In this document: one piece after another, positions 5,901 through 56,898 of the stretch
How the letters are laid out: every line of letters begins with the position of its first letter
Position numbering within the stretch: position 1 is the stretch's first letter
Source of the DNA: a virus
Virus record (IMG/VR): IMGVR_UViG_3300029893_000005
Coordinates: 7,904 to 71,903 of that record
DNA: 64,000 bases
Reading direction: 5' to 3' (one strand)
Notes under the pieces: generated by a model
Seen by the model: the letters and a program-made list of their open reading frames with translations, nothing else
What the model was told of the DNA's origin: nothing
Database searches by the model: none
Position numbers and translations under genes: made by a program

Positions 5901-6417
5901 GTGGCGATACTGGTGCGGAATGCTCGTTACGTTGTGCCCGATCCTGTGTCTGGGTGCTGGAACTGGACCAGAAGCCTCAACGACCAGGGTTACGGACAGT
6001 TCACTTACGCTGGTAAGACGTATCGCGCCCACAGGGCGCTGTACGCCTACTACACAGGCGAGGACGTTCGGGGAAAAGTGCTCTGTCATCGTTGCGACAA
6101 CAGGGCTTGCTGCAATCCCGGGCATATCATTGCGGGCACACAGGCCGACAACCTTCGAGACATGGTGTCCAAGGGCCGCCACTGGACGGTCAACAATCCC
6201 GACAAGCGCCCACGGGGGGACGCGCACTGGACGAAGCGCACCCCCATCTCGGAACCATACGGGTTCTCGGAAGAAGCGGCTGACGGCGGAGCAGGTGCAG
6301 CAGGTAGAGGAGCGCATGGCGGAGGGGGCGTCTACTCTTCGCACACTGGCGGAAGAGTTCTCAGTGAGCATGTCCACCATTAACCGTATTCGCCGCAAGG
6401 CGGGGGCATACGCCTGA
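5901..6417 (+). pseudogene. HNH endonuclease with C-terminal HTH, split by a +1 frameshift
   Basis: Frame 5901 carries CWNW...GYG...RAHR...LCHRCDNRACCNPGH...DN. The HTH (LTAEQV...TLAEEFSVSMSTINRI) is in the +1 frame and ends at a TGA that overlaps the portal ATG. A C5 run lies at 6241-6245. Confidence 0.7.
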
Positions 6418-34071: not shown

Positions 34072-34436
34072 ACGAGGAGGCGCAGGCGGCGCGGGACCGT
34101 TTCGACACCCGCAAGCAGGCAGAAGACCACTTCTTGGCGAGACCGCTGCGCCCGGCCCCGCCCATCGACTTCACTCGCGTGAGCGAGCGGGAGTACAAGA
34201 AAGCGATGAAGGGGGTGAGCAAGAGCATGGCAACCTTCAAGATCCTGGGCTCCGAACCGGCCGACGAGCCGAACGCGGTGGACGTCACGATCCGCATCGG
34301 CAACCTGAAGGGCAAGGACGCCCGCAAGGCCCTGATGGGCTTCCGGATCATCGAGCAGGTGCTGGCGGACGACAGAGTGACGTTCGACGAGTACTTCCTG
34401 CTGGGGTCGGCGGTCGCGTCCATCACCCGAGCGTAG
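34065..34436 (+). CDS. Hypothetical protein
   Basis: 123-aa ORF overlapping the upstream stop codon. Confidence 0.6.
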   Translation: MVNEEAQAARDRFDTRKQAEDHFLARPLRPAPPIDFTRVSEREYKKAMKGVSKSMATFKILGSEPADEPNAVDVTIRIGNLKGKDARKALMGFRIIEQVLADDRVTFDEYFLLGSAVASITRA

Positions 34437-34451
34437 AGGAGGCGAAGTCCC

Positions 34452-34550
34452 GTGAACGAGGTGCTCTACGGCTGGCGCTACGGTCACCGCATCGTGGTCG
34501 TCCACCCGGAAGGCGACAAGTGGCGCTGCACCTACTTCTCGAACCAGTAG
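34452..34550 (+). CDS. 32-aa peptide (MNEVLYGWRYGHRIVVVHPEGDKWRCTYFSNQ)
   Basis: GTG start with GAGGAGG SD; ends just before the terminator. Translated by hand. Confidence 0.5.
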   Translation: MNEVLYGWRYGHRIVVVHPEGDKWRCTYFSNQ

Positions 34551-34790
34551 AAAGCAAGAAGCCCGCACTCCCGAGAGAGGCGGGCTTCTTCACGCCATCC
34601 GCGTTCACCGCTACCCGCCAGTTTCCTGGTTTCACGGTCAGGGCTGCGCCACCCTGGGTATGCTACTCGCGGCTGTAGGGGCGAGGCTTCGTACCTACCA
34701 AGCACGGTCGACCGGCAGAGCCGGCGTTCCTATACCCTCGCCCAACCCACTGAGTCTCTGCAGCGACACTCGGTGCTAGGGTTACTACGC
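34551..34790 (-). ncRNA. Candidate ~240-nt structured ncRNA of unrecognised class
   Basis: Bounded by a TTGACA-17-TAAGAT promoter and the terminator. No credible ORF. Multiple stems: GGGCGAGG/CCUCGCCC, CAGGGU/GCCCUG, CCAG-GAAA-CUGG, UACCC/GGGUA. Confidence 0.6.
34556..34590. terminator. Bidirectional intrinsic terminator at the junction of the convergent arms
   Basis: AAGAAGCCCGC...GCGGGCTTCTT 11-bp inverted repeat. Confidence 0.75.
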
Positions 34791-34795
34791 AGGAT

Positions 34796-34842
34796 ATCTT
34801 ACACCGACTCCTCGGACTTGTCAACCCCTTCTTGTGAAGAAG
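34796..34842 (-). promoter_or_regulatory. Sigma70 promoter with an adjacent operator-like palindrome
   Basis: -35 TTGACA (34819-34824), 17 bp, -10 TAAGAT (34796-34801); CTTCTT-GTG-AAGAAG at 34828-34842. Confidence 0.7.
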
Positions 34843-35164
34843 TTCGGGGGATGGGCATGGAGTCCACCTTTCCCCCGGGCGTGAGGCGGAAACGAGCCTC
34901 GGCCCCCTTCTCCTCGTCGAAGAACCAGATTTCCCCGGGGGGCACGTTCTTGCTGCGCCGCACCACGGTCCCGCCCAGGGCGGACAGGAACTGGCTGGCG
35001 GTGCAGCAAGGGATGGTGTCGGCGAAGTCCCAGATCGACTCGGCCGGGATCTGACTCCAGCATCGGTAGTGGGCCACCCCCTTCGGGATGACCACCATCT
35101 GGGTCTCCGCAGGGTCCTCGGGACCTCCGCACACGCAGCAGGGACGGGGGAAGCCGACCGACAT
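34799..35164 (-). CDS. Hypothetical Cys-rich protein
   Basis: 121-aa ORF with CCxC and H.C motifs; GAGG SD. Confidence 0.55.
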   Translation of the reverse strand: MSVGFPRPCCVCGGPEDPAETQMVVIPKGVAHYRCWSQIPAESIWDFADTIPCCTASQFLSALGGTVVRRSKNVPPGEIWFFDEEKGAEARFRLTPGGKVDSMPIPRTSSQEGVDKSEESV

Positions 35165-36016: not shown

Positions 36017-36196
36017 TCACGGCTCCTTCGGGGAGAGAAGTACGACCTCTGACGTAAGCCCGTTGGCCCGACACATGCACTGAAACCCCAGCGCACCGTG
36101 TTCTCGGGCGCTGGAGATGTCCTCCTCGGACAGGATGTGGTCCCTACGGCAGGAGACACATCGGTACAAGCCGGGCACCAAGTCCTCGATCTTCAT
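36017..36196 (-). CDS. Small Cys-containing protein
   Basis: MKIEDLVPGLYRCVSC...CMC; ATGA overlap. Confidence 0.5.
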   Translation of the reverse strand: MKIEDLVPGLYRCVSCRRDHILSEEDISSAREHGALGFQCMCRANGLTSEVVLLSPKEP

Positions 36197-36483
36197 AGGG
36201 CTCCACCACCGTGCTCGGTCTCCTGTTGTTCCCGCTTGTAGTCGGCCACCTTCAGCCACAACTCGAAGGCCTCGCGCAAGATGTCGGGCCGCGAGATGTT
36301 GAGGTAGCGCACGTACCCTTCGATGCGGTCGAGTGTCTTCTTCGGCACCACCACGATGACCTTGACACCGTTCTTGATCTGGCGGCAGCGCAGGCACATG
36401 CAGGTGGTCTTGTGGTCGTACTGCTTGCCGCGGCTGGCAACGCAGGAAACGCACTTGCAGTCGGGGCGGGGCAGGTGGCTCAT
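36193..36483 (-). CDS. Ribbon-helix-helix (CopG/Arc-like) regulator with N-terminal Cys/His zinc motifs
   Basis: KVIVVVPKKTLDRIEGYVRYLNISRPDILREAF is an RHH pattern; it is preceded by H....CKCVSC and H...CMCLRC. Confidence 0.7.
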   Translation of the reverse strand: MSHLPRPDCKCVSCVASRGKQYDHKTTCMCLRCRQIKNGVKVIVVVPKKTLDRIEGYVRYLNISRPDILREAFELWLKVADYKREQQETEHGGGAL

Positions 36484-49956: not shown

Positions 49957-51458
49957 TATTCTGGCGCCTCCGGTGGCGCGTCCCCGTCAGCGGGGTACGC
50001 TTGATATTTTCTCTGGGGCCTGTCCCATTCTACCGCACTCTTCCTGCCCGAGTCAATATCTTGTGAAGATTTCTTTCCGTTGTTGCGACGGCGGGACTCG
50101 CGATCCTCACGGACTTCCTTCTCCCGCTCCAACTGCTCGGCCAGGACCTTGGCGATGTTGCGCTGCCGCCCCTCGGGGTCCTCCCGCAGGTCGGCGTTTC
50201 CCCAGTCAGCAATGAAGGGGAGTTCAACTCCCACCCGTCCTCGCTTGTTCTTGAGGGCCGCCAGCCGGCAGCGGGGGGGCTCCATGGCCATCTCGGTCGG
50301 GGTCTGACACAGCGCCAGCCAGAGCGCCGCCGGCCACGTCTTGATGTAGCCCTCAGCCACCTTCTTCAGGGACAGGATCTCCTGCTCCAGGCCGTCCCGG
50401 TTGGTCTGGGTGGCGGTCAGGACCAGGGCGTTGTGAAGTTTGCCCATACGCCTCAGACCCTCGAAGACGTCGCCCAGCCGCAGGTGGTGCTTCTCCTGGG
50501 GGTTGGAGGCCTCCAGCAGGTCCCCGTAGTCCACCACGATGACGTCGACCGGGCCGCCGTCCCGCTCCATCATCCCGACGTAGCCGCGGATGGTACCCAC
50601 CGTCAGCCGCTCCGCCACCAGGGAGGTGAGCACGAGGTTGTTCGGGTTGATGTTGCGCTCCCTCATCCACTCCAGCAGCGCCTCGTGGCGCTCCTGCTTG
50701 GTGTAGGGACGGTCGAGCCCGACACGAGAGGCTCGCCCCAGGAAGCGGCGATCCACTTCGGTCTGGGTGTCGTCGAGGGTGAAATACGCCACTCGCAAGC
50801 CCTGCTCCACGAAGTTGGCCGTGAAGTTGAGGAGGATGTGGGACTTGCCCGCATTGGTGGGGGCCATCACCACCATCAACTCGCCTCGCCCCATACCGCG
50901 GTTGCGCAGCAGGGAGTCGATGGACGGGTACCCAGTGGAGATGACCTCCTCGTCGTCGTCCACCTCCAGGAGTTTCTCCAGGTACTCCGTGCGCAGGGGG
51001 TAGATCAACTTGGTGGCGTCTCGCGCCGACACCAGAGGCTCGATGCGGTCCACCACCGAGCGGGCCTGCTCCAGCAGCCCTACCACGTCGCCTTCGCCGG
51101 CCGACACCGTGTCCGCCAGCCCGGTCAACTCCCGCAGGGCGACGTACTCGGCCACTTCCAGGTAGGACGCCTCGGTCACGTCGAGGGTGTAGAGGTGATC
51201 GACGGCTGCCGTGACGCCGGCCAGGGTCTCTACCGGCTCCCCCACCGGCAGGCGGGAGGACACCAGCGCCAGCAGTTCGTCCCGAGTAGGGGGGCGCTTC
51301 AGTTTCTTGTAGAGGGGGCGGGCCAGCCGGTAGATGACGGCATAGAAGGGGTGCTCGATGTAGTCCGGCTTCAGGACGTCGAGCAGAGCCCCGAAGGCGT
51401 CGGCGTCCCGCAGGACGTATGCCAGCGCACGCTCCTCTCGCGTGACGGTCTCGATCAT
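49956..51458 (-). CDS. Replicative SF4 (DnaB-like) helicase
   Basis: MAPTNAGKS Walker A, VIVVDYGDLL Walker B, TATQTNR, KNKRG. Confidence 0.85.
   Translation of the reverse strand: MIETVTREERALAYVLRDADAFGALLDVLKPDYIEHPFYAVIYRLARPLYKKLKRPPTRDELLALVSSRLPVGEPVETLAGVTAAVDHLYTLDVTEASYLEVAEYVALRELTGLADTVSAGEGDVVGLLEQARSVVDRIEPLVSARDATKLIYPLRTEYLEKLLEVDDDEEVISTGYPSIDSLLRNRGMGRGELMVVMAPTNAGKSHILLNFTANFVEQGLRVAYFTLDDTQTEVDRRFLGRASRVGLDRPYTKQERHEALLEWMRERNINPNNLVLTSLVAERLTVGTIRGYVGMMERDGGPVDVIVVDYGDLLEASNPQEKHHLRLGDVFEGLRRMGKLHNALVLTATQTNRDGLEQEILSLKKVAEGYIKTWPAALWLALCQTPTEMAMEPPRCRLAALKNKRGRVGVELPFIADWGNADLREDPEGRQRNIAKVLAEQLEREKEVREDRESRRRNNGKKSSQDIDSGRKSAVEWDRPQRKYQAYPADGDAPPEAPE
50027..50070 (-). 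promoter_or_regulatory. Internal promoter with operator at the helicase 3' end
   Basis: TTGACT (50051-50056), 18 bp, TAGAAT (50027-50032); ATCTTGTGAAGAT at 50058-50070. Confidence 0.7.
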
Positions 51459-54100: not shown

Positions 54101-54367
54101 CTACGAGAGGTCCTTCACCTTCACGATGAACTTCTCGCCGAGGGCTTCGACGATGGCGTTGACCTGGGCGCGGGTCACCCGCTTGAACTCGGGTACCTCC
54201 AGGCTGGGCCGATAGACCCAGCGCCCGTCGTGGCTGTCGAGCGGCCACAGGAACTGGAGCACCGCTCCCTTCCGCCGCTTCAGGCTGCGCTCGGTGCAGA
54301 AGTCGACATACTGTCCCTGCCGCACCTCGATCTTCTGGCTGTTGATCTTCAGGATCGCCTGTCTCAC
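54101..54367 (-). CDS. Hypothetical protein
   Basis: GTG start overlapping the polymerase stop codon. Confidence 0.55.
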   Translation of the reverse strand: MRQAILKINSQKIEVRQGQYVDFCTERSLKRRKGAVLQFLWPLDSHDGRWVYRPSLEVPEFKRVTRAQVNAIVEALGEKFIVKVKDLS

Positions 54368-56898
54368 GCTGCTTCCTCCCTCATGGTGTCGAGCCACTCA
54401 CGGTAGCCCATGTGGTACACGCCCTGCTTGTCGGTGTATCCGTTGGGCCCCATCAACTCTCCGAGGCTGGGCCCCAGCATCCCCTCGACGTCGAGGGGCA
54501 CGGGGATCTTGAAGGGGTAGTCCATCTCCCGCATCAGGGCCTCCTGCTTCTCGGCCACGACCTCGGCCACGCCCAGCGGGATTTCCGCCCAGATAGCGTC
54601 GTGAACCACGTTGACCGGGATGAGGCGCTGGTTGTCGCGAAAGGTGCGGATCAACTTCCACAGGGTGCAGTCGCTGGCCGTGCTCTGCACGGGGAAGTTA
54701 GCCACCTGATTCTCAACGTGCCAGTCCGCCCGTCCCGTGAACTCGAAGGACCGCTGCCGCCCCCAGGGAGTGGTGATGAGGTCACCGCGGTAGGCCGCCT
54801 CGATCAGCGACTCCTGCCACGCCTTCAGTTCGGGGAACCGCCTGTGGAACTTCTTGTGGAAGTCCTCGGCTTCATGCAGCGACAACTTGTTGCGGCTGGC
54901 AAAGGTCTTCGGGGTCTCGCGATAGATCATCGCCAGCACTCCGACCTTCATCATTTCACGCTTCTTGGTGCCCTTCTTGCACTCTTCCAGCGGCAGCCCC
55001 CACAGGTCGGAGGCCATCACCTGATAGATGTCGCCGGCGAGGCAGGCCTTGATGAGGTTGCGGCTGTCGCACAGCCACGCCGCGATGCGCACCTCCACCT
55101 GGGCGAAGTCGAACTCGGCGAAGGCGTAGCCCGGCTGGGCTTGGAAGAGTTTACGGAAGGTGGGGTCCTTCTTCAGGTTCTGGATATTGGGGCGGGTGGA
55201 CGACAGGCGGCCGGTGACGGCGCCCTCCTCCCCGCTGTCCCCCTCACCGCGGTCCGTCTTGCACAACTGGTACTCGGTGTGGATCCGTCCGTCCACGATG
55301 TGGTGCTGCAACGGGGTGAGGAACTTGTTGCCGAGGTTGTCCCACTCCTTGAAGGCGACGAGGTACTTCCAGGCCTTGTGCCCGGCTGCCAGTTCGGGCA
55401 AGACCTCCTTCTTGTCGAGTTGCGGCTTGCCCGTCTTGGTGCGGCGGTGGACGATGGCGCCCGTGGTCTTGACCAGGGCGTACTGGCAGATGGGGGAGTT
55501 GGGGGAGAACACCCCGCCGAACCGCTTAGGCAGGTCCCGCTCCACCGCCTTCACCTCGGGCATCCGCCGCATCTTCTGCAGGATCTCCCCGGCCCATCGC
55601 TTGCTGGCGGTCTCCAGCGCACGGCAGTAGTGAGCGTCTGCCGGCAGCCCGTTGAGGGTGGTCTGCCCCAGCGCCACGATGGCGTCCCGCAGCAGCGTCT
55701 CGTAGACCGGCGGGGCCTGGACGTGCTTGATAGCATACTCCCGCAGCAGCATGGTGTTCCACACATCCCGCCCGTTCATGTCCGCTACCAGTTGAATGGG
55801 GACGTCCGCCAGCGAGGCGACGGGCTTCTGCTTGAGGGATCGCAGTCGCTCGTTCTCGGCCTCCACTGCTTCCCAGGCTGCGCCCTTCCAATTCTCGATG
55901 CCGAGCAGGTGATCGCACAGGGACTCCAGGCTGTTGCCGATCTTACCCAGGTCGAGCGAGGCGAAGGTCATCATGGTGTCGTGGACGCCCTTGAGCATCC
56001 AGTACAGGTTGGGCTCGAAGTAGTGGGCGAGGCAGGAGACGTCGACGTGGACGTTGTGCCCGTCGAGGATCTTGCCCTTCAGGCACGACAGGAACTCCCG
56101 CGTCATGAGCCGTTTCGGCACCACCCACACCGGCTCGTCCAGGCTGGTGCCGAAGCCGACGCACACGAAGGGTACCTTCGGCATCCAGTAGGTGAGCATG
56201 TCGGGGGCGTGCTCCTTCGCCTTCTTCGGGCTGCCCCACTCGCAGTCGAAGGTCACGACCTCGGCCCGCAGGATCTGCTTGCGCAGGGTGGCGAGGTCCT
56301 CCCCGCCGGTCACCAGCCGGATGTCAGGCTCCCGCTCCTGCACGCCCTCGATGATCTCGGCGGCGCGGGTGAAGATGCGGGTGTACTCCTCCGTGCAGTC
56401 GTTGCCCCGGATGTGGTACGACGGGTGGTAGGTGGTGAGCAGGTGGTAGGGGCCGGCGTTGTAGGTGCGCTTGCGGGCCTCGTTGACGGTTTTGGGGCCC
56501 TCCGGCCACAGCGCCTGCAGGGCGATAGCGCCCAGGGCGACCACGACCTTCGGCTTCAGCCGAGCGATGTCCCGGGCCAGATACTGCCGGCACAGAGCGA
56601 TCTGGTCTTCGTCGGGCTTGCCGGTACGGCAGCGCACGGCGTTGGACAGGGCGTAGGTCCCGCCCCAGGCGTCTAGCCAGGGCTGCAGCACGGCGCCGGG
56701 GTCGCCGCTGAAGGGGAAGCCCTCCTCGTCGTCCACCTCGTCGGGGGCTCCCCCCACCAGGAGGATGTCGACCTGGGTGCTGGTTGTGGAGATGGTGGGG
56801 ACCTTCCAAGTCGTACACCCGGCCTTCAGGCCGCAGGCGTCGCACAGCCGTGGATCGTACTCTCCCCGTCCAATGGGGTAGAAGGTGGGCTCGCTCAT
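54364..56898 (-). CDS. polA: Family A DNA polymerase with an N-terminal family-4 uracil-DNA-glycosylase-like domain and 3'-5' exonuclease
   Basis: UDG-like: CDACGL...C, NAVRC, TYHPSY. Exonuclease: FDCE, GHN...D. Polymerase: TGRLSSTRPNIQN, FDFAQVEVRI, R.MMKVGVLAMIY, NFPVQSTASD, VHDAIW. Confidence 0.9.
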   Translation of the reverse strand: MSEPTFYPIGRGEYDPRLCDACGLKAGCTTWKVPTISTTSTQVDILLVGGAPDEVDDEEGFPFSGDPGAVLQPWLDAWGGTYALSNAVRCRTGKPDEDQIALCRQYLARDIARLKPKVVVALGAIALQALWPEGPKTVNEARKRTYNAGPYHLLTTYHPSYHIRGNDCTEEYTRIFTRAAEIIEGVQEREPDIRLVTGGEDLATLRKQILRAEVVTFDCEWGSPKKAKEHAPDMLTYWMPKVPFVCVGFGTSLDEPVWVVPKRLMTREFLSCLKGKILDGHNVHVDVSCLAHYFEPNLYWMLKGVHDTMMTFASLDLGKIGNSLESLCDHLLGIENWKGAAWEAVEAENERLRSLKQKPVASLADVPIQLVADMNGRDVWNTMLLREYAIKHVQAPPVYETLLRDAIVALGQTTLNGLPADAHYCRALETASKRWAGEILQKMRRMPEVKAVERDLPKRFGGVFSPNSPICQYALVKTTGAIVHRRTKTGKPQLDKKEVLPELAAGHKAWKYLVAFKEWDNLGNKFLTPLQHHIVDGRIHTEYQLCKTDRGEGDSGEEGAVTGRLSSTRPNIQNLKKDPTFRKLFQAQPGYAFAEFDFAQVEVRIAAWLCDSRNLIKACLAGDIYQVMASDLWGLPLEECKKGTKKREMMKVGVLAMIYRETPKTFASRNKLSLHEAEDFHKKFHRRFPELKAWQESLIEAAYRGDLITTPWGRQRSFEFTGRADWHVENQVANFPVQSTASDCTLWKLIRTFRDNQRLIPVNVVHDAIWAEIPLGVAEVVAEKQEALMREMDYPFKIPVPLDVEGMLGPSLGELMGPNGYTDKQGVYHMGYREWLDTMREEAA

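Follow-up and report, generated by a model that had tools for sequence, protein, structure and literature searches.

The 248-bp gap at which the two gene arms of this phage converge is entered from a sigma70-type promoter with an operator-like palindrome beside it, closes with an intrinsic terminator and holds no credible ORF in between. We take all four features to be real because consensus scans, fold energy and GC3 agree, and these sequence signals support the original prediction that the non-coding unit stands alone, having a promoter, an operator-like site and a terminator of its own. Our preferred explanation, to which we give about even chances, is that the gap is an operator-linked non-coding unit that would be expressed as a small RNA of ~235 nt, of the 3'-UTR type and with a promoter of its own.

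The arm junction and its transcription signals

The phage, which is uncultivated and comes from groundwater, is represented by IMG/VR record IMGVR_UViG_3300029893_000005 (79.5 kb, 65% GC, estimated to be 74% complete), of which we analyzed a 64-kb stretch, here called the window. The same DNA was recovered in subsurface, rock and aquatic metagenome runs; among the runs listed, no RNA run contains the stretch, which speaks neither for nor against expression. Plus-strand genes reach 34550, the final three ORFs encoding 1285, 123 and 32 amino acids, and minus-strand genes descend to 34799, where the final one is a 121-aa ORF. As plus-strand genes stop at 34550 and minus-strand genes stop at 34799, the interval 34551-34798 is the junction of two convergent arms. 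Its features, and those of the genes that border it, are as follows.

34452..34550, plus strand: convergent 32-aa ORF, the last of the plus arm, separated from the terminator by 5 nt; a perfect ribosome-binding site, AGGAGG, precedes its GTG start by 9 nt, and GC3 in the ORF is high
34556..34590, both strands: bidirectional intrinsic terminator hairpin, common to the convergent plus-strand operon
34591..34789, minus strand: predicted non-coding transcript body, its start placed ~7 nt after the -10 hexamer
34796..34801, minus strand: -10 hexamer TAAGAT, which contains the 121-aa gene's stop codon, TAA
34799..35164, minus strand: gene for a 121-aa Cys/His protein, the last of the minus arm, with a GC3 signal
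34819..34824, minus strand: -35 hexamer TTGACA, in codons 115-117 (V-D-K) of the 121-aa gene
34828..34842, minus strand: operator-like palindrome CTTCTT-CAC-AAGAAG, upstream of the promoter, with 3 nt between it and the -35 hexamer

Gene calling picked up the 32-aa ORF in only one of three near-identical contigs, and whether it is a gene is uncertain. The 121-aa protein, by comparison with 38 HMM hits, belongs to a family in which C9, C12, H32, C35, C53 and C54 are nearly invariant. It has no match in Pfam or PHROG. AlphaFold2 models it with a pLDDT of 85, and a comparison of this model with the PDB gave no match at E <= 0.001 and weak resemblances to PHD/LIM-type zinc fingers.

A consensus scan bears out the predicted minus-strand promoter, TTGACA-17-TAAGAT (34824-34796). 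Over both strands of the 64-kb window (128 kb of scanned strand), seven sites agree with the consensus at 10 or more of 12 positions. Six of the seven belong to the minus strand and are spread over 34.8 to 60.5 kb, at 34824, 39525, 43222, 50056, 54097 and 60455, and all six are co-oriented with the genes around them; the promoter at 34824 is the sole one among the seven sites that has no ORF downstream. The other minus-arm promoters have TAGAAT, TAGGAT or TATAAT as their -10 hexamer.

The phage operator palindrome that had been placed beside the -35 hexamer is also there, as a symmetric variant, with two mismatches, of the motif ATCTT-CAC-AAGAT. Exact copies of this motif occur four times (43204, 50058, 54074 and 58255), each at a minus-strand promoter, and with up to two mismatches allowed we count eight sites where 0.48 are expected. 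The palindrome sits by the RNA promoter in the same way as the copy at 50058 sits by its own. On this basis, we propose that it links the RNA promoter to the phage's set of operator-controlled promoters, and temporal regulation via the operator would be plausible. The distribution of the motif is consistent with a single phage-encoded regulator that governs the minus arm; one candidate repressor would be the ribbon-helix-helix protein encoded at 36193-36483. Across that arm, five of the six promoters, all except 60455, have the operator TCTTCACAAGA or a variant of it, which lies in the spacer or immediately upstream of the -35 hexamer.

At the other end of the interval, the terminator predicted at 34556-34590 is a perfect hairpin. 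Its energy is -26.0 kcal/mol on the minus strand (z = -4.3) and -24.5 kcal/mol on the plus strand. Past the GC core, direct reading of the sequence gives UUCUUGCUUUCU as the minus-strand tail and UUCUUCACGCCA as the plus-strand tail; the U-rich tail is the better one on the minus strand, that is, in the direction of the RNA. From the promoter to this intrinsic terminator at the 3' end the interval is free of ORFs, as in small RNAs of the 3'-UTR type. The gap sequence is also the 3' UTR of the upstream operon, because no terminator lies between them, and it is because the RNA would double as this 3' UTR that we describe it as a 3'-UTR-type small RNA with an internal promoter.

Coding potential and fold of the predicted transcript body

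A frame plot agrees with the earlier view that the region contains no credible ORF. Over 34551-34798, GC3 is flat at 0.55-0.75 in all frames, compared with 0.85-0.97 in the flanking genes. The short ORFs in the gap run through the terminator, and none is common to the gap and to the equivalent spacer of the one close relative, contig L002, that we describe below.

The original prediction had listed a set of helices and had read them as a structured, multi-domain RNA. The listed helices are indeed present in the minimum-energy fold, but a 65% GC sequence of such composition yields these helices by chance. When the full 240 nt are folded, z is -1.5 to -1.7, and the signal comes from the terminator. 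The 198-nt body without the terminator has z = -0.13 in the sense and -0.04 in the antisense direction relative to shuffled sequences. As the energy of the body equals that of its shuffles and no fold is shared with L002, the structured-RNA part of the prediction is not supported.

That the RNA belongs to no known class, as had been thought, is in line with our searches. Rfam 15 (4227 covariance models) returned no matches at gathering thresholds over the whole window, and at E up to 10 over 34300-35000 it returned only terminator look-alikes, the best of which was Thr_leader with 19.7 bits against a threshold of 55. The same search on L002 gave nothing relevant, and ARAGORN found no tRNA or tmRNA genes. 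The gap has no iterons, no direct or tandem repeats and no AT-rich unwinding stretch. Both predicted transcripts, that of the window and that of L002, have a cluster of three G-runs 20-60 nt past the inferred start (GGGUUGGGCGAGGG at window positions 34735-34748 and GGGGGGCCGGGAAACCUGGGGG at L002:648-669); such clusters are frequent by composition at 65% GC.

Constraint and turnover among relatives

We could compare the gap with a variant from the same lineage, a contig in run X9 (here the X9 variant), which is ~3% divergent, has a depth of 5.5 and spans 34300-34926. Its spacer differs from that of the window by three substitutions in 248 nt, all at positions predicted to be unpaired: the bulge of the terminator, the loop of the terminator and one hairpin loop. 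Only one substitution falls in the 208 nt of the body. In the flanking 123-aa and 121-aa genes there are nine substitutions in ~88 third-codon positions, eight of them synonymous. Substitutions are thus ~10-fold fewer in the spacer than at flanking third-codon positions (Fisher p = 4e-4). Because substitutions are so much rarer there, the comparison argues that the spacer sequence matters in the lineage of X9 and the window, with the reservation that the X9 variant is one low-depth contig and that a recent recombination block would look alike. In the 32-aa ORF, X9 has two non-synonymous changes and no synonymous ones.

More distant relatives are few. A blastn search of the locus against a phage collection gave no match, and searches of viral and metagenome contig collections, whether started from the 1285-aa, 123-aa or 121-aa protein or from an alignment of two proteins, returned no relatives. 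Homologues of the two downstream proteins led to unrelated contexts. The 121-aa protein has a single close relative, P0002, with 60% identity by BLASTP (58% in alignment A2), which is encoded on L002, a 1.3-kb groundwater contig from sample ERZ909602. There, TTGACA occurs in the same codon phase (I-D-S), inside a C-terminal protein tail that is otherwise unalike, and is followed by an extended -10, TGc-TTTAAT, that lies over the stop codon. An ORF-free body of ~205 nt comes next, then a terminator of -30.7 kcal/mol and then a convergent gene. Hence, in the window as in L002, the promoter overlaps the 3' end of the gene upstream, as expected of a 3'-UTR-type small RNA.

The two bodies themselves cannot be aligned beyond one 10-mer, CGAAGCCTCG, and their predicted architectures differ. 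A sole common 10-mer (CGAAGCCUCG) is near what chance would give, and it is paired in both predicted folds. Sense-to-sense local alignment of the bodies is at chance level (p = 0.18-0.33), and two covariance models, R1 and R2, built from the 5' and 3' domains of the window, gave noise-level scores on L002. The RNAalifold consensus of the two spacers reaches -23 kcal/mol, compared with about -80 kcal/mol for each sequence singly; folded alone, the L002 body has z = -1.45. As far as two sequences can show, the conserved structure that had been anticipated is therefore not found by covariance models or RNAalifold.

In the course of these comparisons, window positions 34593-34795 were seen to resemble L002:623-824 more in inverted than in direct orientation. 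The inverted alignment has 57% similarity over 161 columns, z is 3.8-4.7 against shuffles, and among 3172 genome tiles it ranks fourth. The similarity is sensitive to the scoring scheme and comes with no structure in common; it may be due to chance or to an inverted element at the level of DNA.

An exhaustive HMM search extended the family of the 121-aa protein to 38 members, all small phage proteins. Beside the four of these 38 that we examined (P0004, P0005, P0007 and P0008, at loci L006-L012), the spacer unit is absent and other genes follow. At L006, the equivalent junction is a plain 110-nt gap with a bidirectional terminator. Since only L002 shares the layout, we consider the unit to be specific to one small lineage, in which it is the layout that is kept and not the fold.

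Interpretation and known systems

From this layout, in which the signals and the absence of an ORF are directly observed, we infer that an RNA would be made, where it would begin and end, and that it may have a regulatory role. Host sigma70 RNA polymerase would start at ~34789, from the promoter embedded in the final codons and stop of the 121-aa gene, and would stop at the 34590-34556 hairpin, yielding a ~235-nt RNA without an ORF. Such an RNA would base-pair with a target or bind a protein via short single-stranded segments and would not work through a conserved fold; action through short accessible segments is the more likely of the two. Between lineages, the body would turn over fast, with the promoter, terminator and length class retained. 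Antisense targets in the phage, for which a search had been suggested, did not emerge: within the phage genome, complementarity is nowhere above chance, blastn-short finds nothing longer than 12 nt, and the best non-self duplex, at -76.9 kcal/mol, is not outstanding among 7942 tiles (mean -52.8, sd 7.7).

Phage small RNAs are known, though few have been characterized, and to our knowledge uncultivated high-GC subsurface phages have contributed almost none. A real transcript would be an unclassified phage RNA under operator control, located at the point where the early and late arms collide. A kept promoter and terminator, together with constraint within a lineage and complete turnover between lineages, could be a general means by which phages carry regulatory or anti-defence RNAs. 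A bolder version of this idea, which we consider rather improbable, holds that the conserved element is an 'RNA expression slot' whose non-coding cargo of ~200 nt is rapidly replaced in related phages. At one end of the slot, a promoter would be fused to the stop codon of the gene that closes the early arm; at the other, the late arm would use the same terminator. The cargo of the slot might be, for example, decoys or regulators tuned to the defences or mRNAs of each host. If true, it would be the RNA counterpart of protein 'morons'.

The gap might instead be a passive spacer and 3' UTR, with a bidirectional terminator that blocks read-through between the arms and an RNA that has no function; the promoter-like site would then be fortuitous, or would only send polymerases against late-operon read-through. 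The lack of a thermodynamic signal in the body and of conservation with L002 are as this explanation would have them, as is the plain terminator gap at L006. We nevertheless think it unlikely. A perfect -35 hexamer with 17-nt spacing is rare at 65% GC (the other strong sites among the seven are real gene promoters), and TTGACA has been retained in L002 within a protein tail that is not conserved. Moreover, neutral DNA should diverge as synonymous sites do, but the gap has ~10-fold fewer changes, and ~200 nt of extra DNA have been retained in two lineages of a tightly packed genome. The same rate argument applies to a decayed gene remnant, which would not evolve more slowly than synonymous sites. 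That the gap hides such a remnant, or an intact gene for a small protein, seems to us barely credible. There are indeed short ORFs, one of 57 aa in the window (34532-34705, minus strand) and one of 46 aa in L002, and L006 has a 54-aa ribbon-helix-helix gene at the corresponding position. However, GC3 is flat in every frame, the ORFs cross the terminator and are not common to the window and L002, and tblastn of the small proteins encoded near the family gene in L006, L007, L011 and L012 against both spacers gave matches at chance level only.

Two further readings assign the unit a function other than that of a regulatory RNA of the 3'-UTR type. One is that it is a DNA element activated by transcription, in which a short transcript opens or primes the DNA, as at an R-loop type replication origin. 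The T4 origins ori(uvsY) and ori(34) consist of a promoter and a downstream unwinding element, and ColE1 RNA II would be comparable. A promoter that fires into non-coding DNA would suit such an origin, and the phage's genes include one for a family A DNA polymerase (ORF 54364-56898). The G-run clusters just downstream of both inferred starts would fit as well, and the inverted similarity between the window and L002 would sit better with a DNA-level element than with an RNA. But iterons, direct repeats and an AT-rich unwinding stretch are all absent, G-run clusters are common at this GC content, and the inverted similarity depends on the scoring scheme; we regard a DNA element of this kind as improbable. 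The other is that the RNA is a decoy against host defence, either a CRISPR-repeat mimic (an RNA anti-CRISPR) or a mimic of an antitoxin RNA, carried as fast-changing cargo in a fixed slot. On our reading of the sequence, the hairpin CAGGGU-GGCGCA-GCCCUG, together with ACCGUGAAAC behind it, is shaped in outline like a CRISPR repeat of the Cas6/Cas5d type with GAAAC at its end. That the promoter-terminator slot is kept while its cargo differs between the window and L002 would also be expected of a decoy. Against this, Rfam yields no CRISPR-DR family at E up to 10, the gap has no tandem repeats, and, in a scan of 185,579 species genomes for repeats ending in CGTGAAAC, none among the matches listed resembles the hairpin. 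We therefore hold a decoy to be very improbable. We also considered that the gap might be an attP site and rejected this, as no integrase is found in the record, which is 74% complete.

The preferred reading, a small RNA of the 3'-UTR type with its own promoter, has parallels in several known systems. MicL in cutC and DapZ in dapB are bacterial small RNAs that derive from 3' UTRs and have their promoters inside the upstream coding sequence. The window unit is like them in that its promoter lies in the end of an upstream ORF, it shares the terminator of the operon, it has no ORF, and its length is within 100-300 nt. It differs in that it is phage-encoded, lies at the convergence of two genome arms and is predicted from sequence. 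Among phages, lambda makes short promoter-proximal transcripts, the 194-nt pR'-tR' '6S' RNA and the OOP RNA, the pR' transcript being there for extension by Q into the late genes. In lambda, as would be the case here, the discrete phage unit comprises a promoter for host polymerase, a short non-coding transcript and an intrinsic terminator. Read-through from the window unit, in contrast, would enter the convergent late operon as antisense transcription, with no downstream genes in that direction. The packaging RNA of phi29 (RF00044) is likewise transcribed on its own from a dedicated promoter, as a phage RNA in the 120-240 nt range, but the window unit matches no Rfam family at E up to 10, and the ~80-kb genome is unlike that of phi29.

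A closer parallel in setting is found in the N4-like Pseudomonas phage LUZ7, for which ONT-cappable-seq identified putative intergenic small RNAs of <250 nt (PMC9163698). These RNAs of LUZ7 come from an intergenic hotspot and have their own start site and terminators, and bidirectional terminators lie between its convergent genes (PMC9163698). Both are short-tailed phages with intergenic non-coding units of <250 nt, a predicted one in our case, and a bidirectional terminator at convergent genes. The RNAs of LUZ7 are backed by RNA data, whereas the unit described here is predicted from its sequence signals.

A unit of similar design also occurs at the convergence gap of an unrelated groundwater phage contig, L133 (JGI Ga0172369_10006897), at 5955-6140 on the minus strand. 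It has a TTGACA-18-(TG)TATCAT promoter, ~140 nt without an ORF and a U-tailed terminator, and its fold has z = -1.66. The sequence of this gap is unrelated to that of the window unit despite the matching design, which hints that such units may recur at arm junctions.
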